Source: Ruditapes philippinarum
Taxonomy: Eukaryota
Assembly (NCBI RefSeq): GCF_026571515.1
Contig: NW_026861047.1
Coordinates: 310,001-374,000 of the forward strand
Length of the DNA: 64,000 nucleotides
Reading direction: 5' to 3'
Shown: positions 9,025-58,075 of the stretch, in pieces
Layout of the letters: every line of letters begins with the position of its first letter
Numbering within the stretch: the stretch's first letter is position 1
Translations under genes and position numbers: made by a program
Notes under the pieces: model-generated
Databases searched by the model: none
Told to the model about the DNA's origin: nothing
What the model saw: the letters and a program-made list of their open reading frames with translations, nothing else

Positions 9025-10951
9025 CCCTTTGTTTCTCATAGTATGTTGTGTTATTTTATTTTCAGTATTATCAATATCTGTCACAAGCTGCTAAAGCCCT
9101 TTGTTTCTCATAGTATGTTGTGTTATTTCATTACATGTATTATTAATATCTGTCACTAGCTGCTGAAGCCCTATCTTTTTCAGATGCGTGTTGTGTTATT
9201 CCATTTTCAGTACATATATTATCAATATCTGTCACAAGCTGCTGAAGCCCTATCTTTTTCAGATGTGTGTTGTGTTATTTCATTTTCAGTATTATCAATA
9301 TATGTCACAAGCTACTGAAGCCTTTTGTTTCTCATAGTATGTTGTGTTATTTCATTTTCAGTACATATATTATCAATATCTGTTACAAGCTGCTGAAGCC
9401 CTTTGTTTCTCATAGTATGTTGTGTTATTTCATTTTCAGTACATATATTATCAATATCTGTTACAAGCTGCTGAAGCCCTTTGTTTCTCATAGTATGATT
9501 TGTTATTTCATTTTCAGTATTATCAATATATGTCACAAGCTGTTGAAGCCTTTTGTTTCTCATAGTGTGTTGTGTTATTTCATTTTCAGTACATATATAA
9601 TCAATATCTGTTACAAGCTGCTGAAGCCATATCGTTCTCATAGTATGTTGTGTTATTTCATTTTCAGTATTATCAATATCTGTCACAAGCTGCTGAAGCC
9701 TTTTGTTTCTCATAGTATGTTGTGTTATTTCATTTTCAGTACATATATTATCAATATCTGTTACAAGCTTCTTAAGCCCTATCGTTCTAATAGTACTAGT
9801 ATGTTGTGTTATTTCATTTTCAGTATTATCAATATCTGATACAAGCTGCTGAAGCCTTTTGTTTCTCATAGTATGTTGTGTTATTTCATTTTCAGTATTA
9901 TCAATATATGTCAAAAGCTGCTGAAGCCTTTTGTTTCTCATAGTATGTTGTGTTATTTCATTTTCAGTACATATATTATCAATATCTGTTACAAGCCGCT
10001 GAAGCCTTTTGTTTCTCATAGTATGTTGTGTTATTTAATTTTCAGTACATATATTATCAATATCTGTCACAAGCTGCTTAAGCCCTTTGTTTCTCATAGT
10101 ATGTTTTGTTATTTCATTTTCAGTATTATCAATATCTGTCACAAGCTACTGAGGCCTTTTGTTTCTCATAGTATGTTGTGTTATTTCATTTTCAGTATTA
10201 TCAATATCTGTCACAAGCTGCTGAAGCCCTTTGTTTCTCATAGTATGTTGTGTTATTTCATTTTCAGTACATATATTATCAATATCTGTTACAAGCTGCT
10301 GAAGCCTTTTGTTTCTCATATTTCATTTTCAGTACATATATTATCAATATCTGTCACAAGCTGCTTAAGCCCTATCGTTCTCATAGTATGTTGTGTTATT
10401 TCATTTTCAGTATTATCAATATCTGTCACAAGCTGCTGAAGCCTTTTGTTTCTCATAGTATGTTGTGTTATTTCATTTTCAGTATTATCAATATCTGTTA
10501 CAAGCTGCTGAAGCCTTTTGTTTCTCATAGTATGTTGTGTTATTTCATTTTCAGTATTATCAATTTCTGTCACAAGCTGCTGTTCAAAGCCCTTTGTTTC
10601 TCATAGTATGTTGTGTTATTTCATTTTCAGTATTATCAATATCTGTCACAAGCTGTTGAAGCCTTTTGTTTCTCATAGTATGTTGTGTTATTTCATTTTC
10701 AGTACATATATTATCAATATCTGTTACAAGCTGCTTAAGCCCTATTGTTCTCATAGTATGTTGTGTTATTTCATTTTCAGTATTATCAATATCTGTCACA
10801 AGCTACTGAAGCCTTTTGTTTCTCATAGTATGTTGTGTTATTTCATTTTCAGTACATATATTATCAATATCTGTTACAAGCTGCTGGAGCCCTTTGTTTC
10901 TCATAGTATGTTTTGTTATTTCATTTTCAGTATTATCAATATCTGTCACAA
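9025..10951. repeat. Minisatellite, ~26 copies of interspersed 72-bp and 78-bp units
   Basis: Unit ccttttgtttctcatagtatgttgtgttatttcattttcagta[catata]ttatcaatatctgtcacaagctgctgaag. The ORF track shows 24/26-aa periodicity on both strands. Confidence 0.95.
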
Positions 10952-11880
10952 TCTGGGTAATACTATTAAGCAATATAGCCGCTCTTTCCTAGTAATTTTT
11001 CTTTAGGCTTTTATAAGAAATACATATAAGTTAGTTTGTCATTCTAATTATACAGTGTTTCCGGTTTTCATAATGGGTAATTTCTACACTCTTCTATCAA
11101 TTTGAATGTGTTGTTATTTAATTAAACTACTAGAAATATGCCTAAAAGTACTTCAAACAGAATATCATATTTTGAACATTTTCAGGTTCATTATTATAGT
11201 TATGTTATTGGATCATATCAGATTCGAACGATTGTTATTTAATATGTTTCTATATTAATGCATATGTTTAATTGTTTACATATGGAATGTCATAGAAATA
11301 AAAGCAATACTACATATGTGTTTGTGTTTTATTTTCTTAGTTTTGTAGACAAAAGGATAAATTAATGATTTATTTCGATTTGAGCAAAACGAATAAGGAA
11401 ATAAATGCGGTTCTTTCAAGCAAGCAAATATATATGAACTTGATAATAAAATAAAAAGGGGGAATAATTAATATTATTTATCATTAACACCATATACATA
11501 TTTAACCCGCATTTACTCCGAGCCAATAATTCAAAAGTATGAAAGTCAAAACAAATAGATTATACTGAAGTAAGTTTTGGTAAATGTTATAATTTTAAGT
11601 ATATAACCTAAAACGTGTGTATAAATATCCAAATATTACTCGATATAAGTTATATTTGATTGTACCCCCACTTTAACCACATAAAGTCATGCTTGAAAGC
11701 AAACGTAAAACATATCTTTTTATCAAGGAAGTTGTAAAATGCAAATAATCTTTTAACTTTCAGGTCATAAAATGAACAAACAGATACGGCATGCGTAAAA
11801 TGATTAAAGGCAAAACGAAATTAAAATATTTTTTTTATCAAAACTCGTGTTATTTTTGTTCTAAAATGTGTTCCTCATTA

Positions 11881-12703
11881 ATGGCTAGGTCACGAATAAA
11901 ACGGGCACCGCCCTGTTAAACGATTTTTAAAGCATCGGCGATCTCGCGAACGCCGGGCGATTACCTTGCGTGGTCATGAGGGCGTTTTTTGCCGAATTGA
12001 TTTTACAGCTAGAAAGCATTCATAGGATCGGGCGATTGCCGCCCGATGTTCGAAAGGCGCCTGTGCAATTATTAAATGCATCGAGCGCTCGCTGCGCGGG
12101 CACCAGGCGGCAAAAGCTTGACATCTTATGATATTCTTTTCCGCGGCCATGGCGTCATCAACACGACCACCTCTGCGGTGACTATTGTCATATAATGTTG
12201 CTGCAACAATTTTATTTTTCCTTTGCCTTTAGACGGATTTGCACGACGAATGAGTTTATGTTAAATCCAAAGGAATTCACGAATGCATTTTCGATTCAAG
12301 CCGCAATTACAACAAACTCAAGCCTCCCCGTTCCCTTGACGGCATAACGATGACCGCCCGGTGCCTGCTCATGAATCGTCCGGGTACCTGGCCTACGTGT
12401 GTCTATTCTGGCGCCGGGCGGGACTGGGTGCCTTTAAAATCGGACGGTGTTTTTTGTATCAAAACAATCGCCCAGCCCGAGCACCGCCTTTGACCGGGCG
12501 GTATCTGCCCGATGATTTTTTAACTCGCTGACCACAAAAATTATTGTCCAGACGCTGTTACCTTTTAAGTTTTACTTTTAACTCGACGGCACCTGCCCAA
12601 TGAGCAAAATGTTCAGCTGCTGCCATCCGGTTGTCACTGCCGCCGGACGAAGCCAGGGCGATATTGCGATTTTTTTTTTTTATTTCTTTTTTTTTTTTTT
12701 TTT
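11881..12703. mobile_element. GC-rich degenerate repeat, probable non-autonomous DNA transposon, followed by a poly-T tract
   Basis: Abrupt GC/CpG-rich island with recurring cgggcg/cgcccg motifs in both orientations (gggcgattg ~12030 vs caatcgccc ~12465); no ORF; T-run 12669-12703. Confidence 0.4.
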
Positions 12704-13441: not shown

Positions 13442-13899
13442 TATAAAACATAAGAATAGAAAGACTTTATAATCATTGGATATCCAAACTATTTTCATCC
13501 GTTCAATATTAAATTGTAAATATTAGGTAAAATATGATAAAATACTTTTATTTCACAGCTAAATGTTGTTGCATGCATGAAATGATGTGAACACTTACAC
13601 GAGATGTTTTGCCAGCTTCCTTTCATAAAGTGCACTGTTTATGTAGTATAATTTACTTTACTTACTCGCAGTATCTATCATATGTATCAAAAACCATAAA
13701 TAAAAATGGGAGTATTCACATTAAAATATCAACTTCCTTCTTAATGCTGATGCTATTTATGATAAATAATCAAATCATATCTGGCTTACTTTACAAGTAT
13801 AGCAAAGTTTCTTATGGCTTTTAATATATATTTTTAGAAGTATTACAAGTTTGTTCTTGTTAGCAATAACAATCATCGTGTGCGGAAATACTTATAAAA

Positions 13900-15988
13900 A
13901 TGGAATACTTTAATCTACACGATATTAATATTGGTCTTAAAGATAAAGATGACGAAAGTCATCCGTATGCAAATAAACTAGATATCGATTGTTATGAAAC
14001 TTTAAAAGGAAAGAATATCGTTGAGACAAGTTTAGACGAACATATTTACGATGACGCTGAGAAACAAGATACTGTGTATGAAAATACAGGAAACGTTACA
14101 TCAGATCCTACAATGAGATTGAATACAATGACTAGGCAAAGTGTGGAAAATGAATATACATCATTTGAACCTAGATCTGAGTCTACATATGATACAATTG
14201 ATAGGCAAGTAAAGGAGAGAGAATCGGAAATATATAGTACTATTCCTAGAGAAGATGAAATTCTACGTCCTGAAAGCACTATTGGTATCTATAGAAACCT
14301 GAAATATGTTCGGACTAAGAGGACATCGTGTCTCAGAAGGCGGTGGAAATTGCTGTTACTGTTAGCTATTGTGTTGCTAGTCGCTATAACAGGAGTAATA
14401 ATAGCCGTGGTTCTTGTTACCAACGAAGAAGAAACAGGTGTGTTGCTTTTGAAACTTTTTAAGCTCCGCTTTGAAAATTTAGAGCTTTTGTTATGCCTTG
14501 GCGTTGTCGTCGGTTAATATCTTTAGTTAAGTTTTCGTTTGTGGTTCAAATCATAAATATCACCCAAACTTTCAATCTATATGTAAATTTTGGAGATGAA
14601 CATTGATGCGTTTACCTGCCACACCTATTTTCAGGTCAAAGGTCAAGGTCAATGTGTCAATGTCAATAATGAAAACTAAAAACTGTCCTTTGGCCTATTA
14701 TCTTTAAATTTTGTGTTTAGACGCATCGTGATAATTAACTCTTCGTTTTAATTTTGGGTCCAAAGGACACGATACGAAATAACGTTTGTTAACTTTTTTA
14801 TTAAGTCATCAGCATCAATTGTGACATTATTTGCAGATGCATGTAGAAGAGTTTTGCCTGTCATATCCATGTTTTAGTAAAAAGGTCAAATGTCAATGTT
14901 GCCATTTATCTAAGTTTTCTCTTTTATCTGGAAACTGCAATTTACTATCCGGCATTGAGATCAAAAGAGCGCGCTGCCTTCCAGGCAGTTGAAGAATATA
15001 AACACCGATTTGTTTCTATTTTTTTCTGTGCTGAAAAATACATAAGTATAACGGCAGATATTTAAATAGGTTGCTAAGTTTGGTCACAGAATAATGATGC
15101 TATTGAATTAAACAAGTTTTCAACAATAAAATCATGGTCAGATTATATGAAACCGACAATTCTTAGTATTGTGTTTTTCAAAGTGTTATATGTATATCTA
15201 TTTGAAACACGTGTACTTTAATTATTATTTTAAATCATTAAAAATATCTTTCTGTTTTTCATTACAGTTGAATTTACTGAAAATTTCGATTCTCCAATGG
15301 ACACAATAGATGGTTCAGGATCGGGAGAAGGGCCGGGTAAATTCACTTAAACCACGCACAAAATTTGCCATCGTCGGATACCCTAGGTTGATTAACATGT
15401 AATCAGATAAATGTTAACGGTTCGGTCGTGGGTATCCGACGATGAAAATTTGCAAAACATAATGCATTTGATTCATCCAAATATTAAGAAAAAAACATTG
15501 TTTTTCAGAAGTGTATCTTTCCGCAAGGTATATACCTAGTTTCATCTTGTCCTACGATATGCACGGGACTTTTGTGTCAGCTTTCTAGCCAGTGCTTTCA
15601 TTATTAAATGATTCCGATATACGAGTTTACATCTTATACCTATACCTCGCAAGTAATTGCTTTCTAAAAAATGGTACGTATCTCTAGCAGAGACATTTTT
15701 AAACTAAACTTAAGAATTTAGCTGGAATACGATTTGAAGTGTTCTTGAAAGGAGTTCTTGATTTGTTTCTTTCCATATACATCATTTAATAAAACATGTT
15801 TTGGCAAATTTTTCAAAACAAAAATATCGGCGGGGAGGTAAAAAATATTTTAGCACGTGTCAATGTTTACAAGACGTGCAATAAATTGCAAATAATGTAT
15901 GCCTTGCTGCAAGTTTATGGATACTTATATATTTTTCTTTATATTTACAGATGGTACAGATGCTGTATTGACACCATTTGATGATTAA
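13900..15988 (+). CDS. Uncharacterised type II single-pass membrane protein (~214 aa) with Tyr-motif-rich cytoplasmic N-terminus and short acidic Ser-Gly ectodomain
   Basis: Exons 13900-14437, 15268-15336, 15951-15988 (GT-AG, phase 1/1, 645 nt, ends TAA). In-frame TAA at 13867 upstream of aaaATG; acceptor at ~13837. Basic RTKRTSCLRRRWK precedes a 23-aa hydrophobic TM; C-terminus ..EEETVEFTENFDSPMDTIDGSGSGEGPDGTDAVLTPFDD*. Confidence 0.75.
15369..15444. mobile_element. 76-bp mini-MITE with 15-bp TIR and 9-bp TSD
   Basis: Perfect IR catcgtcggataccc (15369-15383) / gggtatccgacgatg (15430-15444); direct repeat aaaatttgc at 15360-15368 and 15445-15453. Confidence 0.8.
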
Positions 15989-17217
15989 TCACAACATATC
16001 AGAAGTCAGTGCCGACAACATGTTAAACGACTGAGGTGAAAAAGCCTTAAAACTTAAAAATTTGAATTGATCAAGTGAATTACTTAAAATGGAAAAAATT
16101 GCAAAGGATAATTATGAATATACTCAGTTTATAGTTGATGCGAATTTTAGCCCAATTTGAATGAAAAGCGTTGACACCATTTTCATTTTTTGGCCATTTT
16201 GCACATTAATGCTTATTTTGGAAAAACGGTGTGCGGGACTGATCTGGAAATTTGTACACAAATTCAGACCTACATCAAATAGTACACAAATCTCAGAAGT
16301 ATACATTATTGACCGCTGCGGAAAGGGAGTTAGCTGTCCTTCAAACTGCCTTGTTCAATTTTAAAAAATGTCAACCAGTACTCCTGAAATGTTCGAAGCA
16401 CCTTTTTCAAAATTTAAAGGAGAACATGAAGATTTTATCGAAAGTTACACTGGACCAGTTCTTTCACTCGTTGTAGTCCCTTTAATATACATAAATATGC
16501 AACTATATGCGACTGTGATATAACAAGAATGACTATAATAAAAGTATATTAATCCAAGTAAAAATGTAAAATGTATCAAATATATGACTTGCTGCAAATA
16601 CGATATACAATTGCGTCAGACACAAAAAGTACGAATTTAGTTACACATACAACACTATTTTATGAACCCCACGAAGCAATATACTTGCTAACAAAGTTTT
16701 TTTTCTTTTTAAAATGTGTTTTTGGGATTACTCTTATGAACATTTAGCAACAAATTTGGAGCATGCATTCCAAAATCATGCCAGCATCACATCTTAATTG
16801 CTACATATTATTCTTGATAACGGTTGATGGTCACTAGCTTGTTTAAGACGTATTCTTAATGAACATTAAACCACACTTGAGCACTTCCCAAAGAACATAA
16901 AATCACGCATTGTACATTCAATGAAAGAATATTATGACAGAACTAATGTTCTTCGTTCATACTATGTGTTTCCAAGAAGAAAATAAACAAAGCCTATCAA
17001 TACTTTTTTGAGGCACCTTGCATGTTGACAGCAAGTAACTTTGCAACAACTTTGATAACAAATAATATTTCAATCAGAAATAGTATTTAAGTTTTCAATT
17101 AACATCTGCATCCTTGTTTTAGACGGAATCCCAATAAAACAAAACTAGCTGAAGATTTCAAAATCCCTACATTACTTCAACTAAAGTGATATGGGATAAT
17201 TTATACTGTAACATAAA

Positions 17218-19134: not shown

Positions 19135-20999
19135 AACTAGAACTATCACTAAATGTGATTAATACCCCCACAAGTCTGCTTCGGAAATGAGGATGTTACT
19201 AGTAACAGAATACCTTGTAAAAGAATTGAAACATAGAGTTATGGTTGTGGGCAATTAAAAATAATTGTGGTTCATGTATGTTGCATTTCCTTTCAATGTG
19301 GTTGGCCATTGATGAAGTTTAATTGAATTACTCTGTAATAAGTCCAGAAAGACAAAGACAAAGAACAAAGGGCAAACACTCTATAAATACTGAAGATAGA
19401 GTTATAGTTCTTGTGCACTGCACTTCCTCTTATTGTGCTTGACCATTGTATGAAGTTGTTTTGAATTCCAACCAGTACGTTTTAAGTTATGCTCCTGACA
19501 AGGAAAAGTATCAAAGGGAAGTAACTCTGTATTTTGTCAAAATGGAGTTATGGCTCTTGTGCACTGCACTTCCTTTGAATGTCCTTGACAACTGTATGAA
19601 GTTGTACTGAATTCCAAACAGTAGTTTTCAAGTTATGCTCTGGACAAGGAAAAGTAACAAAGGGCAGTAACTCTGTAATTAGTCAAGATGGAGTTATGGT
19701 TCTTATGCACTGCACTTCCTCTCAATGTGCTTGACCATTGTATGAAGTTATAATGAATTCCAACAATAAGTCTTCAAGTTATGGTCCGGACAAAAGAAAG
19801 CAATGGAAAAGTAACAAAGGGCAATAACTCTGTAATTAGTCAAGATGGAGTTATGGTTCTTGTGCACTGCACTTCCCCTTATTGTGCTTGACCATTGTAT
19901 GAAGTTGTTTTGAATTCCAACCAGTAGTTTTAAAGTCATGCTCTGGACAAGGAAAATAAACAAAGGGCAGTAACTCTGTAATAAGTCAAAATGGAGTTAT
20001 GGTTCTTGTGCACTGCACTTCCTCTCAATGTGCTGGACCATTGTATGAAGTTATAATGAATTCCAACAATTAGTCTTCAAGTTTAATGATGGTCCGGACA
20101 ATAGAAAGCAATGGAAAAGTAATAAAGGGCAAAAACTCTGTAATTACTTTAGATAGAGTTATGGTTCTTATGCACTGCACTTCCTCTCAATGTGCTTGAC
20201 CATTGTATGTAGTTATATTGAATTCCAACCATTAGTCTTCAAGTTATGCTCCGGACAAAAAAAAGAAGGCAATTGAAAAGCAACAAAGGGCAATAACTCT
20301 GTAATTACTTTAGATAGAGTTATGGTTCTTGTGCACTGCACTTCCCCTTTTTGTGTTTGACAACTGTATGAAGTTGTTTTGAATTCCAACCAGTAGTTTT
20401 CAAGTTATGCCACGGACAAGGAAAAGTAACAAAGGGCAATAACTCTGTAATTAGTCAAGATAGAGTTATGTTTCTTACGCACTGCACTTCCTCTCAATGT
20501 GCTTGACCATTGTATGTAGTTATATTGAATTCCAACCATTAGTCTTCAAGTTATGCTCCGGACAAGGAAAATGCAACGGACAAAAAAAAAAGCAATGGAA
20601 AAGCAACAAAGGGCAATAACTCTGTAATTACTTTAGATAGAGTTATGGTTCTTGTGCACTGCACTTCCCCTTATTGTGTTTGACAATTGTATGAAGTTGT
20701 TTTGAATTCCAACCAGTAGTTTTCAAGTTATGCCCCGGACAAGGAAAATTAACAAAGGGCAATAACTCTGTAATTAGTCAAGATAGAGTTATGGTTATTG
20801 TGCACTGCACTTCCTCTCAATGTGCTTGACCATTGTATGTAATTATATTGAATTCCAACCATTAGTTTTCAAGTTATGCTCCGGACAAGGAAAATGCAAC
20901 GGACGTCTGGACCGACCGACCGACCGACCGACCGACCAACCGACCGACCACCAGGTGACTCCTATATACCCCCCCAAACTTTGTTTTTGGGGGTATAAT
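19135..20999 (+). mobile_element. HINE/pearl-like element with internal satellite array (~10-11 units of ~146-178 bp)
   Basis: 5' aactagaactatcac..gtgattaataccccc; unit gagttatggttcttgtgcactgcacttcc..gaattccaacc..ggacaaggaaaagtaacaaagggcaataactctgtaatt; (GACC)n at ~20910-20949; 3' palindrome tacccccccaaactttgtttttgggggtata. Lies just downstream of the SNX29 stop codon. Confidence 0.8.
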
Positions 21000-21095: not shown

Positions 21096-24000
21096 TTATA
21101 AACCAGAGTATTGTTCAGGTATGGGAGCTGCTTGCCTTGGACTAGAAGACAAAGGTGTCCTTTGACCATCTGACTTCTTTTTCTTCTTGTCCTTTTCTGC
21201 TATTTTGTCACTGAAAAGAACATGCTTCTGATAAATATATAAAAAAATCAGAGCTGGATGATATGATATAAGCAAAGAAAGGAAGATAACTCTGTAAAAA
21301 TGCATGGCAGAATTGCATGCCTTTAATAATGAACAAGTAGTTTAACTTAAAAGTCCATATCTGAGACACTTCATGAGAAAATTAAGAAAGTATTCTAATA
21401 TTCTAAATCTAATAAGACAAATAATTAGGTGAAAATGACCTTAAGAATTATCTTCCCTTTCTAATTTTGATAGTGAACAAGTATTCCAAGTTTAGTTTAA
21501 AAATATAACATTATGTTGATAGTGAACAAGTATTCCAAGTTTAGTTTAAAAATATAACATTATGTTGATAGTGAACAAGTATTCCAAGTTTAGTTTAAAA
21601 ATATAACATTATGTTGATAGTGAACAAGTATTCCAAGTTTTGTTTAAAAATATAACATTATGTTGATAGTGAACAAGTATTCAAAGTTTAGTTTAAAAAT
21701 AAAACATTATGTTGAGATACGAACCTGAACAAAAAGGTTAACCAAAACATTCTAAAAGAAAATTGGGCTAACCAAACCTTACAATAAATAATATGTTAAC
21801 ATAATGGATTTTTTATGCTGTGTTTGGGTCGATTTGAGTGAACTGAGTTGCACCACTTTTCAATTTGGGGTCAATTTGTGCATTATAATTGATTTTTGAC
21901 TGTAAGAAGCGGAGTGCGTGGATGATCTGAAATTTTGTACACAAGATATTGGTACAGACCTTCATCAAGTTGTTCAGACATTTAAAAAAAAATATTTTCA
22001 GTTCCTACATGTCAAAAAACCTCAGTGGAGTCCCTTTAAATCATTACATCAAGATATAAGACAACCAATCTGTCCATTTTTGCATGTTCATTTTCAATCC
22101 AAGGGAGATAAATACTGCAAGGAGGATACTATTGAGTGAACATACAGTATATTGACCTTTTCAATTGGATATAAAAATTTAAGGGGAGATAAATATGCAA
22201 AACTTGCAAGGTTTTCTTAAAATAATTACTCATTTTGCATAGTTTGTTTATAATTGTGAGATTATACAATGGTAAATATTTATTTTCAACTTGATAAAAA
22301 CTTACCTGAAGAAATCTAGAACATCTAACAAAGTTTGTTTACAGGGATTGGTGGACAACCTTGAATCTTTTTCTAGAATATGATTGATTAAACATCTAAG
22401 GTATGTCTGAAATTGAACTCGTCTTCCCTCAACTACTTTACTGTCCTGAAATATATAGACATTCATAATATCTTCATAAAGTAAGCATATAATTAATTTT
22501 TACAGAGAATAAATGAACAATAGACTTACAAAAGGAATGGAGAACACTATAACGGCTGCCTAAAAGTAGAGATACCCCTTTTTTTAAAGTATTATTCCTT
22601 TTGGCTTACAAATTAAAAACCTTTAAATTAACAGGCCATCAGGTACAAATCAAACAGTCTATTTGAGTCAAACTATAGAGTTTTTTTACCTTTTACCTGC
22701 TATGAAAAAAGTTTTAAAATCTTAATATATTACTTGAATTATTTCATATTATTCCCTAAAACAGACTTTTCAATCAACAAGAACTTTTGAAGCATATAAA
22801 AACACTTTGCAATTCTATATATCTGATATTAGATAATACCGGTGTCTACAAAGGTGTATGAAGTTTATTTTTGTTAACAAAGAAACAATATAAAACTCTT
22901 TGTTACCTTTTTACCAAATGTTTTCTTTTGCGGAAATTCAAATTTTCCAGTAAGCGGATGTTTCTTTTTCATTGCAGCATGTAACTCATTAAACTGCTTG
23001 TAGCGTTTATAAACATTCCATTCTTCATCTTTTATTCTTACATATACCTACAGTACAAGACATATAGTAATTAAAGGCCCATTATGTTCCAGAAATGATT
23101 TTATTTTAGTTACTCAAAAAAATAAATAAAATATTTTTGGTGTCTTGATAAAGTTTCAAAAAGGGTTACACATTAGCCAATTATCTGAAACATCTTTCTT
23201 TTCTGTTGTGTTCTGGCAATTAATACAGTTACTGTGATTTAGTAGTTTGTATGGAAGTCAAAATACTACTTTGTTTACATTTTGCTACTTTAGTGACCAA
23301 TATTTTCATATTCAGCTCTTATTTATTAAGATAATAAGTATCTAACATGCTCTTAAACCATTATTTAAATGTTATAAAACTAATGTTTGCCCTTTTTCAA
23401 GAAGGAAACTTTTATTTGTTTCTGAAGCATATTGGGCCTTTAAAGTAAATTTTCAGAGTCTTTCTTTGATGAAAATGTCAAGCTTTATTTCCTGCTATGC
23501 AGTTTTCCTAGTGTTAAAATTTCCTCTGGTATAAACTTATAAATGAATGGCAGGAAATACAACTTGAATGTTAAAAGATATAATGAATAAGGATGTCAAA
23601 AGAGCTTAATTATTTGACAGACAACCTGTTCTAAGAAATTAAAATTATTATCACACTACATTCAAAGAAAATATAATTGACTTGATTTTCATGTGTTTAA
23701 ATTGCATCATTTTTTATTTATATAATAATAATATCATTTTTGATTTCCTAACCAAGAACTTAAATATTGTACAAAATATATCCCAATTTGTTACTTTGTT
23801 CTAGTAAGACAAACAAATGTTTTATGTTACAATAAAATATTGAATTATCTGAATATACCTGATAAACATGATAGGTGTCAGCACCAGATCCTCTGAGAAA
23901 AGCTGATGGTATCCATACATTAATCAGACTGGTTTGCTGTATACTCAAACTGTAAGGTAATAAAAAATACATATATTACAATAAAAATTTCTTGAAATTC

Positions 24001-27000
24001 AAGCCTTGATAGAATAGCCTTAATAAAACAGCTTAAATAAAGATACTGATCAAATGAAGGAATGTTCTTTGTAGACATGAAATCTTAAAGGCAGATATAC
24101 ATTGTATGTTTCACTCAAATACAAAAGAGTTTTTTAATATTTGGTCTTCATTCTCAAGTGTCCTTTAGCATTGGATTTAACTTCATATATAGTCATATAG
24201 ATTTTGAAGTAAATGATGCAGATTGAACCTACAAAAATACATGTTTTAAACTAGCCTGAACTTTCTATAGATTTATCATATACCTAGAAGTGGTAATGAA
24301 ATGTACATGTTAATACTACGTCTAGATATTGTTACATCTCTAAGATTTTATTTCCAGATGACGCATAATGGCAATAAAATGCTTACATTATATAGCGTGA
24401 CTTATTAACAAAGTAAAATTTACCTTTCTGCACCCATGGCCAATAAATCATCTGTAAAGTTAATGTCATGTGGTAACTGAAAAAGTAATATATGAAACAA
24501 CATATAAAACAATAAGAAACTTTTTTTTTAATCAATAAAATTAGACAAAATCTTCTTTTAACAAACTTTTCACAAATTGAACTCACTTAGTTTCTATCTA
24601 TCAGGAAAAAAGTAAGGAAAACTCCTATTAGACATTATATTCTGCCTTTTAAGATATCAAGTATGAAAACAGGACTTACTGGTCCTCTAAGGTCAACAAG
24701 TTCATTCTGTAGTCGTTTGAGCATATTTTCTCTGAGGTTCAGCTGACGATGTAACAACTCGTTGAATTCCATTAGTTCTCCGTGCATTTCAGCAACCTAT
24801 GTAAGAAATTTGAAAATGAAAAGAAATGTGTTATCAATAATTGATTCTACTTTTAATCATAACTTATGATCAAAGACTAAAACAGGCTGTAAATATCTGA
24901 AGTGTAACAATGATCTTTAATATTGGCTGGTTTATTTTTCCATTTGATACTAAACTCCCTTAAATCAATTCAATTCAACACTTTTATTATACAAAAGGCC
25001 TCCTGCCCATACACAGTGCATAAAATATACAATATAAAATCTTATTGCTGGAGATATACATTGTAGTAATGGTCAAATTTTTAACAATTATACAGTACAA
25101 TCTGAATATACATTATTCAAAACATTTAAGGACATTATCTCTTTTCTTTCATTGCATAATAAATATACATAGCAACACTACGTATCAATAACTCGTTTTC
25201 AGTTACCATCAAAGAGTAGAACTTTTCAACAGTCGGATATTGATTGTAATACAATGGTATATATAATGAACGTAAAATTACATGTAAAGAACAAATGATA
25301 AGAAAGTGATACTCGTCCTCTAACACTGATTCACAATACATACAATCAAGATGTTCTCTATCAATATTAAAATCAACAATTTATAATTCTAATTTTGATT
25401 TGAAGAAGAGTAAGTTCAATACACAAATTAATCAGTGAAAGATTAAATAAATACAATGCAATGCATTTGATGCCTTTAATCCTATTTACATACAAAGCAT
25501 GAATTTAAAAGGCTAGCTTGAAATGCATTTATATTATATGGAAAATGATGTCAAGAGAAGCAGAACAATCATCAAAATACTCACCTGTATAAGTTTTTTC
25601 TCGTATTCCTCCGCCTCATGACTATAATCTGTCTTTGGTTTCTCAGGTGGAATAGTGGGTTGTGGTTCTTCTACGTGAATCCCCAAACTCACTATAATTA
25701 TAGTATTATATTATGTAAGTAACATTTAATGAAAGGTTAATAGCAGATGTATAAAAAGGTATGTTCATAAAAATTATATATTTGTATATAATATTTAATT
25801 TGAAATTATTCTTATTGAAAACATAATGCTTTTTGCGGCAGCTTAACATATCAATGTCTCAGAATTTCAGTATTACCCTGCAGACCATGGTCATATATGG
25901 ACCATGTTCAATTCCATACTGTCACAAATGTCACTTAAATTTATTGCCATTGACAAATTTTATCACTTACATCTAAAAACGTATAATATGAAATGCTCCA
26001 AAGTTTATAAATGATTGATTCTATTTGTAATTATGATAAGCATAATGAAGAAAGCAAAATGCTTATTTCAAAATGATAGAAAGTTTAAAATCAAAACAAT
26101 ATATATTTACCATCAACAGTAGTTCCCTCAGTTCGTAACATCTGTACAGCATTCACATATTTCCTTAGCTGATGTTTTAACAACTCATTTTCTCTAAAAT
26201 ATACAAATATATAGAGGATATTGAATGAGTGTAAGTTTAATACTAACACCAATTTAAAATTCTATTTATCACATACCAAAAATAAAGACCATTTAGAAGT
26301 AAAAAAGAAACATATTTCATTGACACACCTAATAGTAAAAAGCTAACATTCAGAGTGTCTCAATGCTATGTTTATATAAGCAAATGAGATCATGTCAAAA
26401 TATATGCATGGCCTTACTATTCCTTTTAAACGGAGTCACAAATGCAGCATGGGTATGTGATAATATGTAGTTTAACTGTTAATCTGCTGGCTGCCATCTG
26501 TTGCATTAATGCTGTGACCAGTGCACCCATTTATGCATTTAGGCTATGTAGGTGTAGTAAGTAAAGTATATCAGATTTATAAATGACATCAATTATCTCT
26601 ACAAAAGTATCTCAGTCATGTACTTCAAAGACTTAATTAGAGCATGCTCTTGAATACTACATCATGTCTTTTCTGTCTTTTATAAGTAACTTCTAACTTC
26701 TCATCAAATCTTTATCAGTACAAATAATTAGAATATCTTTGTCACGAAATACTGTTGTCACTAAATATTTTCTCAATAAGTAATTTTGCATGTACATGAT
26801 ATTACATCTATAATTTGCATTTCTTAATACTGGATGTTAGTATAAGACTTTAAGTCATATATATGATCATATTTGATTTCACATACTTCTGTAATGCCTG
26901 TAGTTTAGCCTGTTCCTTCTCATGTCTGGTAGTTTCTGTATGCTTCATATCCTCAATCTCCGCCCTCAGTATAGACGACGCCTCCATTTCCTGTTCCAAC

Positions 27001-30000
27001 ATCTGCTTCAATGATCTGTGTACAAGTATACAAAACTTAGTTCACTGTTGACTATGTTCAAATGAATAGAATTTAGTTTGTTCAAGACGTATGGCAATTT
27101 TATATTGCTAATATAGTAAAAAACTTATTTTGTGAGAAGAAAGCAATGAACCCGTGTACAAGTATTTAAAACTTAATTCAGTGTTAAAGTAGTCTTATTG
27201 TAATACTTTCCCGCCCCAAAAAATCTAACATCGGTCAATATCGTAGCAAATTTGTTATTTCCAGAATGTTATTTTTTCAAAATCTTGGGCATTAGATTAT
27301 TTACAATCACTCATCCTTATCGCTTTGTACTAAATCCCGGTTATAAACGTTAAAAATTATCGAATAAGAAACGTTCTGGAAATGACTGATTCATTATGAT
27401 ATTGGCCTATGTTAGAAATGTTTTGACAGGCAAGCATTGCAGTAAGACTACCTTAAATAACTACTGTTGAACATTAATCAAAAGGACAATTTTCTGCAGC
27501 TATTTTTTTTTAAGTGATTTAGTAAGAAATATCCACATAAAAGTATTGAAATTATAAGACTCACTTATTTTGTTCTTCTACTTCATCTTTTCTTAACATC
27601 ATTGACACAACAGCTTTCTTCAGCTCATCTATAACAATTGTAAATTATAATATAACATATCATTTTTATAAAAGATGAAATCATACTTAAAAGCACACAT
27701 GGAACATTAGTTGACTAAAAACATTTAAATAATAGTGTACATTGTTGACCATTCTCACTAAATACATTATCACTTTAGTCTATGCCCTTCTTTTTCATTC
27801 AATGAGGGGGCCTACATTTTGAAATTCAACAGTCTATTTGGCATAAACTGTTGACAGCAGCATTTATTTAACCATTCATTTACAGTCAAACCTGTGTTAA
27901 AGTCCATCTCTGAATAATGATAACCCTTCAATTAAAGGTCAGTTTTTGATAACTCTTCATTGATAAATTGGAATGAAGTACCCTCCAAATAAAGAACACT
28001 TGTCTATAAAGACAATTTCTTATCTTTCCCATGGACAGCCTTTGATCACAGGTTTGACTGTATTGGGTCTATCTTGATATACAAAACCACTTGCATCTCC
28101 TTTATGCAAGTCCTACAGCCTTCCTTTTCAGCTGCTTAAATCATTTATTACACTCAGTACAAAAAGAAACGCAAACTGTATATATACCTGGTCATCTCCC
28201 ATAGTGAATGTGGTGCAGAAAAAACTTCAATACCTTTTCAATATTTCATCCATGCTTTATTCAATAACACAACAATTTCATTGATACCTGCAAAATTACG
28301 AAAGTTCCAGCAGTTTAAACACAGCGCTATTGATCACGAAATTTTCAGTTTCAATACCTTGTGTGTCCACCCCTAGCATTGATAAGCGCCTGGCAGCGGC
28401 GACGCATAGAGGTCACTAACATAGCAATGGATGCCTGGGGAATGTTATTCCACTCCTGCACTGCGACACGACGAAGTTCCTGCACCGTCTGGGGCTGTGG
28501 CTGATGCTGATAAATGCGACGTTTTAGCTCGTCCCATAAGTGTTCAATAGGCGCCATATCTGGTGACATTGCAGGCCAGTCTAGCACATTGATGTGGTTC
28601 CGAGCAAGAAAGTTTTGAGTCAAACGTGCTGTGTGCGGGCGAGCGTTATCCTGTTGAAGTGTCCCATGTCCCTGAAAATGACGGTTCATGTACGGTACGA
28701 CAACAGGTGCTAGAACATCATTGACATAGGTCTGAGCATTGACATTACGGTCGAACACTACAAGATCTGTTCTTCCAAACTGTGACATCCCTGCCCATAT
28801 GTGAATGGAGCCACCACCCGAACGATTAAAAGTCTGAATACAGGCTTCGGCATAACGCTCGTTCCTGCGCCTCCAAACACGTGCACGACCATCGGCTCTG
28901 CTCAGCACTATTTTAGTTTCGTCAGAGAAAAGTACCCTGCTCCAGAATCTACGGATCATTCTTATGTGCACTCTAGTCCACCGTAGTCGATCCCGTTTGT
29001 GACGTGCAGTGAGGCGTGATGCCTTGAGGGGTCTCCTACACCTCAAACCAACTTCCTTAAGCCGATTTCGAACTGTGTTTGCATGTATACTGCGCCTGAA
29101 AAGTAACGCAACGTCTCAAAAAGGGTAAACCTCATCAAAACGTGAACAGCTCAAAATTTGATAAGAGGAAGAATTTCGGAAAGATAGCAATATTTTCACC
29201 TACCCCTGAGTACCTATTGTTCGTCTAGCTGTAGAGGACGCCGCTTCGAATCGATTACGTAGGTGCCCCACTCGAATATTCACATCCTGTCTCCTAGTGG
29301 TTATTCGTGGTCGACCGGATTTTGGTAAGTCTTTGACACTGCCAGAGGCATTGTACCTATTCTGTAGACGAGTGATAGTGCTAACATGACAATTAAATCG
29401 CCGTGCAACGTCAATCTTCAAAACACCAGCTTCAAGTAAACCAATTGCTTGATTCCGCAAATGTTCAGCAAGGTGCGGCATGGTTATAAAGTACTGACAG
29501 TTCAAATAAACTTGTTTTTCATGTGTACCGATTCATCACTACACGGCTACATGTATAGAAACTATCGGTAAACTATAGAGCACGGTGTGCACGTGGAAAT
29601 GTGGTTTGTACAGTTTGCCGTTAAACTGCATTGAGGGAGTTTAAAAATAATGCCGTTTTGAACTCAAGTTAACAATAAAATGTCATTGAGAATATTAAAG
29701 GGAAAATTGTTTGTCCAAATTTAGTATAAACCTAAAAAAATGAAAAATGAAAAAGTTGCGTTTCTTTTTGTACTGAGTGTATTTTCTTATTAATGTCTTT
29801 TACGTAATCAAATCAATATCTTGACTGATCTTGTATGACTTGTTTTAAGTATATTCTGGTACAAAACAAAGCAGTCACTACCATAATTTATTTATAATTC
29901 ATTAACTAACATGACATGCTGTATTTTTTATTAAGAGAAACACACACTTTTTCATCTCATTCCATGCTATTTGAAGACAATTGAAATATACAACTTGTGT

Positions 30001-36000: not shown

Positions 36001-39000
36001 GCATAACAGCATTTAACTCAGCATTATCAACAGTGATGGCAAACAAAATGGAGTCCAGTCCTACAATTCCAAAATATAAAAATATTTAATTGTACTAAAA
36101 CTATTATTATCATTATTAAAGATACACGCCTTCAGATAAGACAAACTATTTTAGGAAAAATCAAGCTTGAGAACAACGGTCTAAGATTATAAGAAAAGAA
36201 AAAAAGATTAACGATTCAAGAATGTCCATGTTATGTGCAATTAATGACTGATTTTGAACTATTTAAAACCATATTTCTACTGCGTAAATAACGCACTAAG
36301 GGCTATAACAGAATTTTTGCGTACTTCTGACAAATAGAAAATATGGAGATTTTTTTACCTCTAGCCATCATTGGGAGCATGCTGTTTTTCTCTTGGTCTT
36401 TCAGAAATGCCCAGCTGTGGTAAAATTGACTGAAATCATAATAAATCTTATTTGGAAACATTTCTGAATAATAAGACATTGAACCACACATGTGAAATAT
36501 GTATCATCATTGAACAACCTACCGATCAGCACTACACTTTTCTGCTTGTGCCCAATTTTGGCTATTTACAAGCAAGATAACATACAAAAATTTGAATCTT
36601 AATAGAATTTAAAGACTTGCTGCAAAAACTTTCATATAAAAAAAGACACAACTTTCAAACAATCCTTAAGCAAATACTTACCGGTATTATTTTTAGTGTG
36701 TGGTTTTTTTTACATACAAAATACTAACAGTATTTTGGACATATTTTGGGCACACAATCAACAGGGGTTCTGAAATCTTATGCTAAACTAGTCAGACTCC
36801 AGGCTTTAAGCTGGGGGACAAGTAGATCTTCATGTAAAACTTGTGTGAGGACAAGTGAATTTGTGAGGTAGAAAAAAATACCAAAATACTGTCAATGTAC
36901 CAGTAAATCAATTGTGAGGGAAAAAAAAAAAGATGTCCATGGTTATGAACACTCCATTTACCTTAATAATGAATCACTTTCCACTAACATGTGCATGTAT
37001 CTTTCTAGTGAATGTTCATTAAATGATGCCCTCAACCAGGATCTTCCTCTACCAGAGTCTGTATTAATATTTTTCAGGTTCATGAATCTATCTGCCTCAT
37101 GTCTTGTCAACACTTCCTTTACATAGTTCCAGAACACTGAATACAAAATGAACAACTTGATTTTATTAAGGGGATATGTTATTACTAAAAAATTACAACT
37201 TGCATAAAAATATTTTATAGAATAAAAACAGAAAATTGAATAAATCATTTAAAATGCTACCAAGTGTAGAGGGGTTAAAGAAATACAATAATGGTAGTTT
37301 TAATAAGGCAGAAGAAAACCATAATACAGTAACCTCCAATTGTAACGATATACCACTTATTTCAATGCTACTACCAAGGTCACAGTCCAGACTTGTTTAC
37401 AAATTGGTTGCTGCTCGAATATAGCATTATCTAGATGTTACAATATATAAAATCAGTGGTCCCCTGAATATCGGTGTATACTGTTATGTGTATAGTAATA
37501 GGTTTATAAAGCGTTTAAATCTTATATCCGATTCATTAAATGTACTGACCTAGATCTTTTTCAATGGGTTTGTCTGCAAACATTTCTGCAACCTTTGTGA
37601 GACCAGTCATTTCGGAAACTTGTCTGATGCAAAATAAAAATAAGATTTATTATATCTTTTGATACCCATACAAGACAAGAAAGCGTGTGATAATATTAAC
37701 TCTTAACAAAATATCCTGATTCCTCTTGTAATTGTTGTTGACATTGTTGTTGCTGTTAGTTTTTTGGGGTTTTTTTGTTGTTGTTTTTTTTTGGGGGGGG
37801 GGGGTGTAAATAAGAAACAAACAAAAAATGTATGTATATAGAGCATTTGCTATGACAAAAAGTACATTTATGTTTTTTTTAGTAACATCAAAATGTTATT
37901 GAATAAAACTTTTAGGAAAATGCTAAAATAATGGATAATTGTTTACTTAACAAATAGATCATGAAACTTTTATGAGTTTTATCCTAAAAATATAATAATG
38001 TCTCTGAAAGATACACATGCAGTTATGTTATCCATTGTCTCATTCATAACATATCTTTTGTCTGTTCTTAAAGAAATATATTTTACAATTAAACAGAGAC
38101 TGTATAGTAATTATCAGAATTTTCAAAGATCAAGTTTGGGCATAATATATCTTTAACAAAAGAGGTTAGAAGACCAGCAGTCTATATTTTTTCACAATTT
38201 TCACATGAACTCTTTACCTAACATCTCAAGTTCTCAGCATAAATTCTTATCCCTTAACATCACATAATCTACATGTCTATTATCATATGAATATTTGTAC
38301 TCACTTGAGAGCTGCAATAGCTTTTGTTTCACCTTTCATACCATGTTGCAGTACACTCTCCCAGGCTGCACACAGACATGATACTCTGTAATTAACAAAT
38401 ATGATGATGCTGTTATTAAAGTGGTACCCCTCAATATAAGTAAAATATCTTTTCGAGAAAAAAAAATCAAACTAAAGAAATGTACATTTGTATATTGATA
38501 TTTTAACCCTTACCCAGCTAAGTTGCTTTCTTGAATGGTATTTTCCGGTATTTTCCTTCTTACAAGCTGGACATAACCATCCATCATTTTTAAGGGAAAA
38601 ATATCAAATTCAACATGACAGAATATCAAATAGTGGAGACCATGAACAGACAGGATTGTATGATATTCATTCAATACATATTTTGCATGGATGTGCCCAC
38701 TCATCATGGTTGACACTGGTCACCTGTCTTTTAAGCAGGAAAAAGGTTTAAATGGTTATAGTACATTTGAGAGAATGATTGAAAAGTAATAAATAAAATA
38801 ACACCTGGCATCACTGTCTGTAGCAAGCTCTGTTCTCCCACCAAATCGTACCTGGCACTGTAAATCAACAAATTACATCATAAAATGTTAGGCAGTTAAC
38901 TAAACTTGCACTGCATAGTTTTGTTTAATTATAAATATAATAATGTTAAATTAATTGGCTAGGTTCAATAATCACAAATTTCTTCAAGGATTTTTTTTTG

Positions 39001-40976: not shown

Positions 40977-41259
40977 NNNNNNNNNNNNNNNNNNNNNNNN
41001 NNNNNNNNNNNNNNNNNNNNNNNNNNNNNNNNNNNNNNNNNNNNNNNNNNNNNNNNNNNNNNNNNNNNNNNNNNNNNNNNNNNNNNNNNNNNNNNNNNNN
41101 NNNNNNNNNNNNNNNNNNNNNNNNNNNNNNNNNNNNNNNNNNNNNNNNNNNNNNNNNNNNNNNNNNNNNNNNNNNNNNNNNNNNNNNNNNNNNNNNNNNN
41201 NNNNNNNNNNNNNNNNNNNNNNNNNNNNNNNNNNNNNNNNNNNNNNNNNNNNNNNNNNN
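40977..41259. other. Assembly gap (283 N)
   Basis: Run of N. Confidence 1.
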
Positions 41260-41399
41260 TAGTAAAAGGTGTGAGAGAAAGTAAAAACCTGAAAATGAAC
41301 AGATCAGGACAGTGAGAGACTTTGAAAGCTCTAGTCATTGGTTAAAAATGTTTTTAATTAGTAAGGGTGAAAGAAAGATTTAAAAGTAAAACACAACAA

Positions 41400-44204: not shown

Positions 44205-47945
<3,741 letters not shown>

Positions 47946-51229: not shown

Positions 51230-54200
51230 TCAGCTTGGTTTCATGTTTACTACTCCACTCTCGTCCATTGAAAACTTGGAGGGATCAAATGGTTGGCCTT
51301 TAAATGGAGAACCTTCAGCATCCCATGCATTCTTTAACATGTCCTGCATCTTCTGTAAAGATAAATACATATACTTACATAACTGTTCAGCCAATATACG
51401 TGCATATACAGTAAAATGTGCAAATGCAATTAGGAACTTTAATAAAATAGACACTAACAAAGGTAAAAACATTCCTTTCCTATTATTTCTAGATGGAAAA
51501 TCCATGAATAAGGAGCCAGGCACTAGTAATATATAAATGTATCTTCTATTTGACAGATGATTACCACATTTTCAAGTTTTTTTAGGTCCAAAAGCAATCC
51601 CAACTGAGGTCTTCATGTAAGTTTGCTATATACCAAATTGGATTACAATATTTCATTCCTTACTCTTTGTCATTGTCTGGAAACCATTGTTCTTTTTTAG
51701 TAACAGTGACCTTGACCCATATAAGGTTGCTATATACAAAGTTTGATAACAACAACTCATTCCAAACTGTATGTATTGTACGGAAAACATGAACTCCACC
51801 AACCGACAGACAGACCTACCAACAACTTTAGCGGACTCCTATATAATATACCCCTATAAACTTCATTTGTGCAGGTTAAAAAAATTAATTAGATTACTTT
51901 AAATCTTAATTTGCAATTAGAAAAAGATTATAGAGCATACAGTTAACCGAGGTCTGTCTTAATAGCATGTAATATGTCAAAAATAAATAGTATCACATAA
52001 CAATATCTGGTAGAAAAGTGATCCCTCGGAAGCATTAAAAACAGCAAAATTACATGAAAATTGCAGACTCCGTTTTATTGAGTCTGTACTCAATTCTCAA
52101 CACTTAAAAGTGCTGGACTAAATGATTCCAAAGGACCAGAAAATATAACAACACTGAAGTGTAGTACCTGTTCATTTGCTGTAGGTAAAAAAAGGGGTTT
52201 TTTGTCATATTATACATCACCTCATTGCCGGGCTTTTTATCAAGTCTGTAAAGGTTTGGCATTATCTTAGAATAACTTGGCCCGTTTTAACCCGCCCCCA
52301 CCATCCTCCCCCCCAAAATTATCTAAAAACCATTTTTTCCTTGAAAACTGTTAAAAAAAAAAAATTAAATCTACAAGAAATCAAGGTATAGAAAATTTGT
52401 TGTTTAGATGGTTTTAAGATTCAGATGTAAATCATCAGAATTTCAACTCCAACACTACTGAATTTGATGTCGAACTACTTAAAGTACCTTTAGTACAAGT
52501 TTGTTCAGTAATTTGATGTTCCATCAAGTCAATTACCTCGGAAATACTTACATGAACATTTTCTCCAGGATTAAGTGTCCACATGCTTTCATCCTTTTGT
52601 ACTTCCCATGTAAGATCTCCATCAATTACAACTTTGAACTGACCATTCTCATCTTTGTGGGCCACTTTCACATGTTTCTTACTGATATCTACCTTTACAT
52701 CTCGACCTTTACGAATATATGATGGTACCTTAAATAAAACAAAGAAATGTGTGAATCTTCAATAAAATTAAAGGGGGGGGGGGAAATTTTGAAAACTCCT
52801 TATTTTGAAAAAAACCTTTGTCCATTTTTTTTTTATGTTTTCATTGCAATTTAAAAGAGTCAGTTTTTGTCTTTTAAAAATTTTATAATCATGGGTTTAA
52901 TTTAATTCCCCGGCGGGCCAATTGGTCCAAAACTTTAAAATTTAAAAACTAGTCCCTGCGTTTTTAAAATTAGCAAATTCAAAAATTTTTGTTTCTGAAA
53001 AAAGAAATGACTGATTTTCATATGGAACATTAATTTATCAGTTTATTTAGTTATTCAGGGAACAGAATTACAAATAATGCACAGGTCATTATCCACTTTC
53101 AAAGTTTTAACATTATTAGGCTTATGAAAGACCTTATGAGGCTATTAGATATTGCTGACCAATAGCCAAAATGGCTTGTGGTTTTCTTGGCATAACATGA
53201 ACTTCAACAGAATAAAAGTTATATCAAACACTGTCAGTATGTTTCAAGCTTACTGTAACTCTGAGATCAAGATCTGTTATGGATTGTGCCCATCTGTAAT
53301 TGTCTCTCACTGCCCCATTATAACTTTCTGGATTGTTCTGAAACATCTGTTGTTGTCTATAGAATAAAAATATTAACACCTACAAGTTTTCTCCCCCCAA
53401 AAAAAACACTGGCACTGTATCATATACCCATGCAAAATAAGCAGTTTATCAATAAAGCTTTATATGGATTAGTTACCAGTTATCATATTGGTTAAAGATA
53501 TAAATTTAAAACCATAACATTATACATATGATAAAAATGTAACTTCACATTTATAAAAATCTTTCAAATATCATGGTTATTCAATACAAGTACAACAAGA
53601 AATTGAAAACTGTTTGATGATGTTTCCAACAGCAAACTTTTGGACTTAAAATAGATATTGGCACTGTCTTTTTTATCATTAAGAAGTTAGAAATTAAATA
53701 TTCATCAGAACAAGAGCTTTCAGTAAGACAGCGTGCTCAACTATTTTTGGTGCTTGAAAGTAAAATAAGAGCCTGGATAATGTGGAATTTTCAAACTTCA
53801 ATATGGGCTATAATTCTATCAAACTCCATGTTAGAGTTATGGACCATGAACAGTGACCTTCTATTATGCTCTCAAATAAGCGGGAAGTTTCAACCTATTC
53901 CCTTTAGAATTTTAGATACCATCTTGCCTGAAAAAACTTAACCAAAGTGGGACACCGATTCGAATGCGAGGGTGAGTACAATAGCCTTTCTAACTTTTTA
54001 AATAGTCAGGCTAACATGTTATGTAAACATATGTAATGCAAATTGATAAAAGCAGCAAGTAAATTTACCTTGTTAATTCAGGATCATCGTCTTCCTCAGA
54101 TTTTGATTTAGACTGGTTAGGATCTGATTTTAAATTGTCTATTTTATTTGCTTCCCTTTTTTGTTCATTGTTTATAGAATCACTATTTGCACCATTGCTG

Positions 54201-57988: not shown

Positions 57989-58075
57989 TTTCCAACGACA
58001 AAATCCGTTCTTTCCGATTGAAATCTACGTCAAATAAGCGACTGCAGCGGCTCTTTGAAAGCGTTTGCAGGAAAG
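57989..58075. promoter_or_regulatory. Compact bidirectional promoter/5'UTR region between NUDCD3 and PGAP1
   Basis: Only 87 bp between the divergent ATGs (57988 and 58076); locally CpG-enriched. Confidence 0.7.

Follow-up and report, generated by a model that had tools for sequence, protein, structure and literature searches.

What kind of protein is encoded by a locus that places ten tyrosines on one side of a single membrane helix and a short, acidic tail with Ser-Gly sites on the other? We address this question for positions 13,900 to 15,988 of a 64,000-nucleotide stretch of Ruditapes philippinarum DNA (assembly GCF_026571515.1, contig NW_026861047.1, positions 310,001 to 374,000, forward strand), hereafter the window, which is eukaryotic, rich in AT and carries spliceosomal genes. 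A first-pass annotation had described the locus as an orphan type II transmembrane adaptor with a proteoglycan-like ectodomain. Our analysis indicates that the locus is almost certainly a real gene, and on sequence evidence it is a conserved, uncharacterised, lineage-restricted bivalve gene for a predicted type II single-pass protein. With a probability of about 0.5, we read this protein as a phosphotyrosine scaffold with a glycosaminoglycan-bearing ectodomain, resembling LAT/NTAL plus a syndecan and belonging to neither family. Its anatomy and conservation are taken directly from the sequences, and each biochemical step proposed below is put conditionally.

Gene model and homologues

The plus-strand model consists of three exons of 538, 69 and 38 nt (Table 1), which begin at the ATG at 13900 and encode 214 residues up to a TAA ending at 15988; both introns are of the GT..AG kind, and the reading frame is kept across the junctions 14437/15268 and 15336/15951. 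Scored with a splice matrix whose training set was only 10 acceptors and 9 donors from the neighbouring SNX29-like gene, the donors at 14437 and 15336 rank first and fifth among 397 GT sites, and the acceptors at 15268 and 15951 rank first and third among 351 AG sites. An in-frame extension upstream is ruled out by an in-frame TAA at 13867 together with the lack of any AG in 13870-13899, which also excludes a signal-peptide exon upstream of the ATG. No second copy of the gene was found in the 64-kb window.

A word-index search with exon 1 recovered two homologues among 158 candidates, and an exhaustive search of 1.84 billion representatives gave three matches at E values up to 0.001, so that the gene is no longer an orphan. 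Two of the three, P0001 (95% identity) and P0002 (65-70%), are exon-1 frames that read into intron-like sequence just after the transmembrane helix, both at the same point, and are therefore uninformative on the ectodomain. The third, P0003, is an annotated protein of Mercenaria mercenaria, 'keratin, type I cytoskeletal 9-like', of 309 residues, which is 38% identical over exon 1 (E 1e-17); the similarity persists when the cytoplasmic part is compared without the transmembrane helix (E 2e-16, pairwise). P0002 and the Mercenaria protein begin at the same methionine as the window protein, and the Mercenaria protein keeps three of its YxN motifs, the juxtamembrane cysteine and the charge asymmetry across the membrane. 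Used as a query, it recovered only itself among 253 candidates. P0001 differs from exon 1 at five of 120 residues, none of them a tyrosine; one difference turns the +1 residue of Y112 into Cys.

The keratin name of the Mercenaria protein appears to be a mislabel driven by Gly/Ser composition: unlike type I keratins, it has no intermediate-filament rod, a transmembrane helix is present, and no filament family occurs among its Pfam matches at E values up to 1. No family reached the cut-off for the homologues in Pfam, nor did any in an NCBIfam search, and a PDB profile search returned no match at E values up to 1. With the Mercenaria protein as query, the ESM Atlas gave no feature match (best TM score 0.32; predicted TM score, pTM, 0.21). 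Rfam gave no match on the whole window. The titles and abstract openings covered by our literature search contained no description of this protein family, and we found no paper on the 'keratin, type I cytoskeletal 9-like' label in clams, subscription coverage being partial.

Membrane anchor and topology

On the Kyte-Doolittle scale no segment apart from the transmembrane helix (Table 1) rises above 0, and an N-terminal hydrophobic segment is absent. The positive-inside rule relates flanking charge to membrane orientation. Over the 15 residues on either side of the helix the net charge is +7 on the N side and -6 on the C side, compared with +8 and -2 in Mercenaria; in P0002 the N-side value is +6. 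Neither a charged transmembrane residue nor a signal peptide was found in any of these three sequences. Judged by the flanking charge, an N-in (type II) topology is thus very probable, as the first-pass annotation had proposed. Its basic juxtamembrane patch with a cysteine is also borne out, and Cys144 is a candidate palmitoylation site. Within the helix, a small-residue face (T164-G165-V166-x-x-A169) is invariant across the aligned sequences.

Tyrosine motifs of the cytoplasmic tail

The ten tyrosine tetrapeptides named in the first-pass annotation were all found, at residues 3, 23, 32, 50, 60, 86, 97, 112, 131 and 136, and their mostly acidic context holds, with Asp or Glu no more than four residues upstream in eight of the ten. 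Ten tyrosines in 150 residues is a modest excess (binomial p 0.016-0.08 for an assumed background of 3-4%; for comparison, the 3' part of SNX29 has 10 in 345). The motifs around them are more distinctive. Four of the ten are YxN, at Y3 (13906), Y23 (13966), Y60 (14077) and Y131 (14290), and when the cytoplasmic part is shuffled 20,000 times, at least four YxN arise in only 0.125% of cases. Six of the ten also fit YxxPhi (Yxx[LIMFV]), which is a sorting consensus; at least six are reached in 0.6% of the same number of shuffles. Pfam assigned no family to exon 1 at its cut-off, and no enzyme domain was found in the tail.

These tyrosines are retained preferentially. P0002 keeps all ten, compared with 87 of the 139 other residues (Fisher p 0.012), and Mercenaria keeps seven, compared with 43 of 139 (p 0.017). 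The first five align unambiguously, and there the three sequences share Y3-x-N, Y23-x-N, Y32-E-x-L, Y50-x-D and Y60-E-N without change, while the fourth YxN, Y131, is retained in P0002 only. Columns Y to Y+3 are invariant in 18 of 40 cases, compared with 18 of 98 elsewhere. Thus the tyrosine and YxN motifs are kept in the homologues, as are the Ser-Gly motifs described below in Mercenaria, and the lack of conservation that the first-pass annotation had named as a ground for refuting it did not occur.

Two of its finer motif assignments were not clearly supported. The immunoreceptor tyrosine-based inhibition motif (ITIM) read in STYDTI is rejected as a significant match, since at least one ITIM-like hexamer occurs in 35% of shuffles and is thus at chance level (p 0.35). 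The pair YDTI-x11-YSTI, proposed as ITAM-like (ITAM, immunoreceptor tyrosine-based activation motif), fits the definition with a spacing of 6-12 (PMC6994640) and not one of 6-8, but it is not positionally conserved: P0002, which has no such pattern, has Val at the end of the second half, and Mercenaria has none at that place and carries its own at Y56/Y66, with a spacing of 6.

A short acidic ectodomain with Ser-Gly sites

On the other side of the membrane, the window protein ends in a 40-residue acidic tail (net charge -13) containing DGSGSGE, as previously described. The sequence DGSGSG fits the glycosaminoglycan attachment motif E/D-G/A-S-G given in PMC8418075. The pattern [DE][GA]SG occurs only twice among the window's 127,996 six-frame codons, one occurrence being in exon 2, and shuffling of the ectodomain yields p 0.017. 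In Mercenaria this feature is not only retained but multiplied. The region following the transmembrane helix comprises 137 residues (net charge -20) built of Gly/Ser units of 6-7 residues, with ten Ser-Gly, compared with two sites in the window protein, and eight [DE]GSG, a number reached in none of 20,000 shuffles. An N-glycan sequon, N216, also lies on the C side of the Mercenaria helix. Similarity to the Mercenaria tail is seen for the spliced tail of the window protein (shuffle p 0.015) but not for the read-through of the intron (p 0.99). Taken together, the motifs make it somewhat more probable than not that ectodomain serines carry glycan.

The claim that no folded ectodomain is present agrees with what we found: in an AlphaFold model of the Mercenaria protein built on a three-row alignment, the mean predicted local distance difference test (pLDDT) score is 44.9 and only the transmembrane region exceeds 70, and the downstream Pfam and motif scans described below found no domain. 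The low pLDDT outside the helix is consistent with disorder, weakly so given the shallow alignment. The pattern [WFY]x[DE][DEN]F[DEN], written post hoc, occurs in both ectodomains (P0003 residues 294-309; window 15273-15290, plus strand).

A proposed mechanism

How might such a protein work? The helix would insert N-in, and Cys144 would be palmitoylated. A xylosyltransferase would prime Ser196 and Ser198 (up to ten Ser-Gly in Mercenaria), leading to heparan or chondroitin chains, and these chains may cluster the protein by binding partner receptors or heparin-binding ligands. A Src/Syk-family or receptor kinase would then phosphorylate the tail, whose three invariant YxN would recruit Grb2-type SH2 adaptors multivalently and signal to Ras/ERK or actin, while YExL and the other YxxPhi sites may drive endocytosis or dock further SH2 proteins. 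The tail motifs make the role of SH2 scaffold likely, YxN being described as the Grb2 motif (PMC3342071). In the oyster, ITAM-Syk-ERK signalling is reported in haemocytes (PMC6994640), and haemocyte phagocytosis involves heparan sulfate proteoglycans, Ig-domain proteins of another architecture (PMC7103635). By analogy with this haemocyte precedent, the immune role raised in the first-pass annotation would be plausible, though no feature of the gene itself points to haemocytes.

A bolder extension, which we consider quite doubtful, is that the protein may serve in mast-like cells as the core protein of clam heparin or heparan sulfate, anchored in the membrane and signalling, with the number of chains set by the Ser-Gly repeats. 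It would then be an inverted-topology union of a LAT-type Grb2 scaffold with a glycan carrier of the serglycin/syndecan type. PMC5487770, which also treats the role of serglycin, reports clam heparin, that of Mercenaria included, along with mast-like cells; the passages available from that paper leave the core protein unnamed.

Alternative readings

Several points weigh against a glycan-bearing phosphotyrosine scaffold. Its function is read wholly from short motifs in three informative sequences, and the last five tyrosines align to Mercenaria differently between runs. Because tyrosine is in general more conserved than polar residues, the Fisher tests make the case look stronger than it is. 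The Mercenaria sequence is a database model, and knowledge of the ectodomain is confined to two species, P0001 and P0002 being exon-1 read-throughs without splicing; a three-sequence AlphaFold model would be of low confidence with or without a real fold. The C-terminal 16 residues of the Mercenaria protein weakly match the start (first strand) of a beta-glycosidase, 6T2R, which we take to be of the GH16 family; it is the sole PDB match and non-significant (E 7.7). Finally, PMC8418075 cautions that a proteoglycan is not identified by its motifs alone.

Could the tail instead serve traffic? The protein may be an endocytic or sorting proteoglycan, with glycans outside and tyrosines acting mainly as YxxPhi adaptor-complex signals, which would internalise glycan-bound cargo in place of SH2 signalling. 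The YxxPhi excess (6 of 10, p 0.006) and the heparan sulfate proteoglycans, of Ig-domain type, of oyster haemocyte phagocytosis (PMC7103635) would fit this, but at the five reliably aligned tyrosines the +2 Asn is invariant at three and a hydrophobic +3 at only one, and across all ten the +2 position is invariant in seven and the +3 position in one. We consider this reading unlikely, although the two roles are not mutually exclusive. A different function is suggested by charge: the ectodomain, highly acidic in both species and with Gly/Ser/Tyr repeats, presumably resembles Gly-rich shell proteins, and could be a polyanion, unmodified or shed, that mantle or mucus epithelium uses in shell formation, the tail regulating its traffic. 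This is improbable, given that the repeats keep a [DE]-G-S-G register to a degree far above what composition predicts and that the cytoplasmic part, which bears the conserved motifs, makes up three-quarters of the protein; literature linking the 'keratin 9-like' label to clams was also not found. Reversal of the whole protein, with a sulfated tyrosine-rich N-terminus outside and the short acidic tail in the cytoplasm, is the least probable reading of all. Tyrosine in acidic context is the sulfation consensus, and eight of the ten tyrosines fit it; yet the N-side charge is strongly positive in all three sequences, a signal peptide is absent and cannot be supplied by an upstream in-frame extension, and the Ser-Gly sites and the Mercenaria sequon lie on the C side.

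The remaining alternatives concern the gene model. A non-expressed relic or mis-predicted gene would account for the absence of an annotated copy of this species' own protein from both homologue searches, but it is very improbable in view of a 179-codon open exon whose three counterparts, at 95%, 65-70% and 38% identity, share its start and its break point beyond the transmembrane helix, of top-ranked splice sites and of an annotated Mercenaria protein. An incomplete model, in which the Ser-Gly region would be a stalk leading to a folded domain, is also doubtful; were that domain, say, a beta-glucan-binding one of the GH16 family, the protein would be a Dectin-1-like type II receptor. It would draw on the 6T2R match, on the aromatic-acidic-Phe motif of both ectodomains (a post hoc pattern) and on the state of exon 3, for which the splice score is the sole evidence, homology with the Mercenaria C-terminus being unsupported (shuffle p 0.52 and 0.81). 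A higher-scoring acceptor exists at 16135, but it also stops after 8 codons, and the alternatives (acceptors 15960 and 16135, or intron retention) all stop within 4-9 codons. The first-pass annotation had argued that the 3' end of SNX29 leaves little room, but the SNX29-like stop (21096-21098) is 5.1 kb from that of the gene, and therefore space alone does not exclude further exons. We scanned with Pfam 127 of the 144 listed plus-strand frames (at least 28 aa up to 21.1 kb and at least 45 aa up to 44 kb; two overlapping exon 1 and 15 in a 146-bp satellite were dropped). None reached the cut-off, and one had an E value below 0.01 (0.0056). Only seven of the 310 AG sites after the exon-2 donor leave at least 50 open codons, and all seven lie inside scanned frames without a match. 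Thus the downstream scan turned up no exon for a lectin, a protease or GH16, although domains split into exons of fewer than 28 codons could be missed. The two GH16 motifs used for a six-frame scan of the window, the catalytic motif and WPAxW, are absent; with one non-significant PDB match and no catalytic motif in the window, a GH16 continuation was set aside as unlikely while being retained as a rival reading. Longer homologues were found neither among 1,110 candidates of 381-2000 aa, itself weak evidence, nor among the three matches of the exhaustive search.

Comparison with known adaptors and proteoglycans

The reading as a type II scaffold with glycan outside is best judged against the systems it resembles. 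Transmembrane adaptor proteins (TRAPs) lie N-out with a C-terminal cytoplasmic tail, whereas the tyrosine tail of the clam protein is N-terminal (type II). In other respects the clam protein resembles LAT, NTAL/LAB, LAX and PAG as described in PMC3342071: one transmembrane helix, a non-enzymatic tail, about ten tyrosines with several YxN, a juxtamembrane cysteine and a length of about 200-300 residues. The definition of a TRAP in that paper includes an extracellular part of only a few residues, in contrast to the 40-137 residues with Ser-Gly found here. LAT, NTAL and PAG carry CxxC (LAX does not), whereas the clam protein has the single invariant Cys144. TRAPs also undergo inducible tyrosine phosphorylation and then recruit SH2 proteins, as the clam tail may do. 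We detected no sequence similarity to TRAPs, and in our searches the clam family was found only in bivalves.

With syndecans (PMC4859157) the protein shares a single-pass architecture, an unfolded acidic ectodomain with Ser-Gly and a small-residue face of the transmembrane helix. It differs in its inverted topology, its long tyrosine-rich tail, a helix with one Gly (G165xxxA169) where syndecans have GxxxG, and the absence of the C1/V/C2 regions and EFYA end, its C-terminus being the acidic tail; Pfam gave no syndecan match. The proposed analogy with LAT, PAG and syndecan in inverted topology therefore stands for the anatomy (tyrosine tail, YxN, Ser-Gly) and not for the defining features (orientation, ectodomain length and CxxC on the one side, GxxxG and EFYA on the other). 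Closer in orientation is transmembrane agrin, a type II heparan sulfate proteoglycan (PMC4859157) that also carries Ser-Gly clusters outside; it is large and multidomain, whereas the clam protein has no folded module and is cytoplasmic for the most part. The Mercenaria protein has tandem Ser-Gly units in an unfolded core, as does serglycin. Serglycin has a Ser-Gly repeat core and a signal peptide and is a soluble granule protein, while the clam protein has an internal transmembrane anchor, no N-terminal hydrophobic segment, a signalling-type tail and, in the window, only two Ser-Gly.

DAP12 and FcR-gamma carry an acidic residue within the transmembrane helix. The clam helix is uncharged in all three sequences, and on this ground the DAP12 analogy of the first-pass annotation is rejected. 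Like DAP12/FcR-gamma and the oyster CgIgR (PMC6994640), the window and Mercenaria proteins each contain D/ExxYxxL/I-x(6-12)-YxxL/I once (spacing 11 and 6, respectively), but at different positions and with none in P0002; Ig domains are also lacking. Unlike type II receptors of the C-type lectin, GH16, trypsin or fibrinogen kinds, the clam protein has no folded C-terminal domain that we could find.

Features of the locus and its surroundings

Coordinates are collected in Table 1. Between 15989 and 21100, 14 polyadenylation-type hexamers occur on the plus strand, including the two listed. In the presumed 3' untranslated region, a 52-codon frame at 16365-16520 (plus strand) starts near a Met and has a protein-like composition, with no Pfam match. 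About 1.2 kb upstream of the gene, a GC-rich block followed by a T run (11900-12700) may represent a regulatory region or what is left of a mobile element, and a 72/150-bp tandem array of about 26 short units, with long open frames on both strands, occupies 9025-10955.

Table 1. Features of the gene and its convergent neighbour, in window coordinates.
Feature	Position	Strand	Description
Coding exon 1	13900..14437	+	Start codon, whole cytoplasmic domain, transmembrane helix, first ectodomain residues; phase-1 donor
Cytoplasmic N-terminal domain	13900..14349	+	150 aa, acidic, predicted disordered, ten Tyr
Polybasic juxtamembrane patch	14305..14349	+	Net +7; Cys144 at 14329-14331, invariant in 3/3 aligned sequences
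Single transmembrane helix	14350..14421	+	L151-T174, uncharged, signal-anchor type; Kyte-Doolittle 19-mer 3.3
Coding exon 2	15268..15336	+	69 nt, phase 1-1, acidic ectodomain; acceptor best of 351, donor 5/397
DGSGSG	15309..15326	+	Candidate glycosaminoglycan sites Ser196 and Ser198; DGSG at residue 194
Probable terminal coding exon 3	15951..15988	+	12 residues, stop TAA; least certain part
Candidate polyadenylation signals	16537..16987	+	AATAAA at 16537 and 16982; pattern matches only, in AT-rich DNA
SNX29-like convergent neighbour, ten 3' exons	21096..27628	-	Coiled coil and PX-type region; exons in one frame

The convergent neighbour has its RUN domain further 5', at 36961-37248; from the RUN and PX architecture we take it, as did the first-pass annotation, to be SNX29. 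A satellite-like array of 146-bp units (19351-20900) adjoins its stop downstream. One of its introns holds a Tc1/mariner-type transposase (28354-29532, minus strand) with DDE_3 and HTH_Tnp_Tc3_2 above cut-off, in two long open frames with a probable short intron between them. An assembly gap at about 40980-41260 (283 N in the window) separates SNX29 from a gene with a ribosomal protein L10e exon (44886-45251, plus strand). This gene and the CS-domain exons at 52438-54376 (minus strand), presumably NudC-like, are housekeeping neighbours and useful as synteny markers. Two 250-bp copies, 97% alike, lie at 58066-58569 (plus strand); one resembles a first coding exon, presumably of a PGAP1-like gene, and the other is frame-shifted.

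Implications

LAT-type adaptors, described from the immune cells of vertebrates, have little sequence in common, and because of this any invertebrate counterparts would be missed by homology searches. The gene described here is a concrete candidate for an invertebrate LAT-type adaptor, with its tail on the opposite end and an outside that may carry glycan, and it is a specific candidate for a core protein of the sulfated glycans of clams. At the least, a hard-clam protein listed in the database as a 'keratin' appears to be a membrane protein of an unnamed family.

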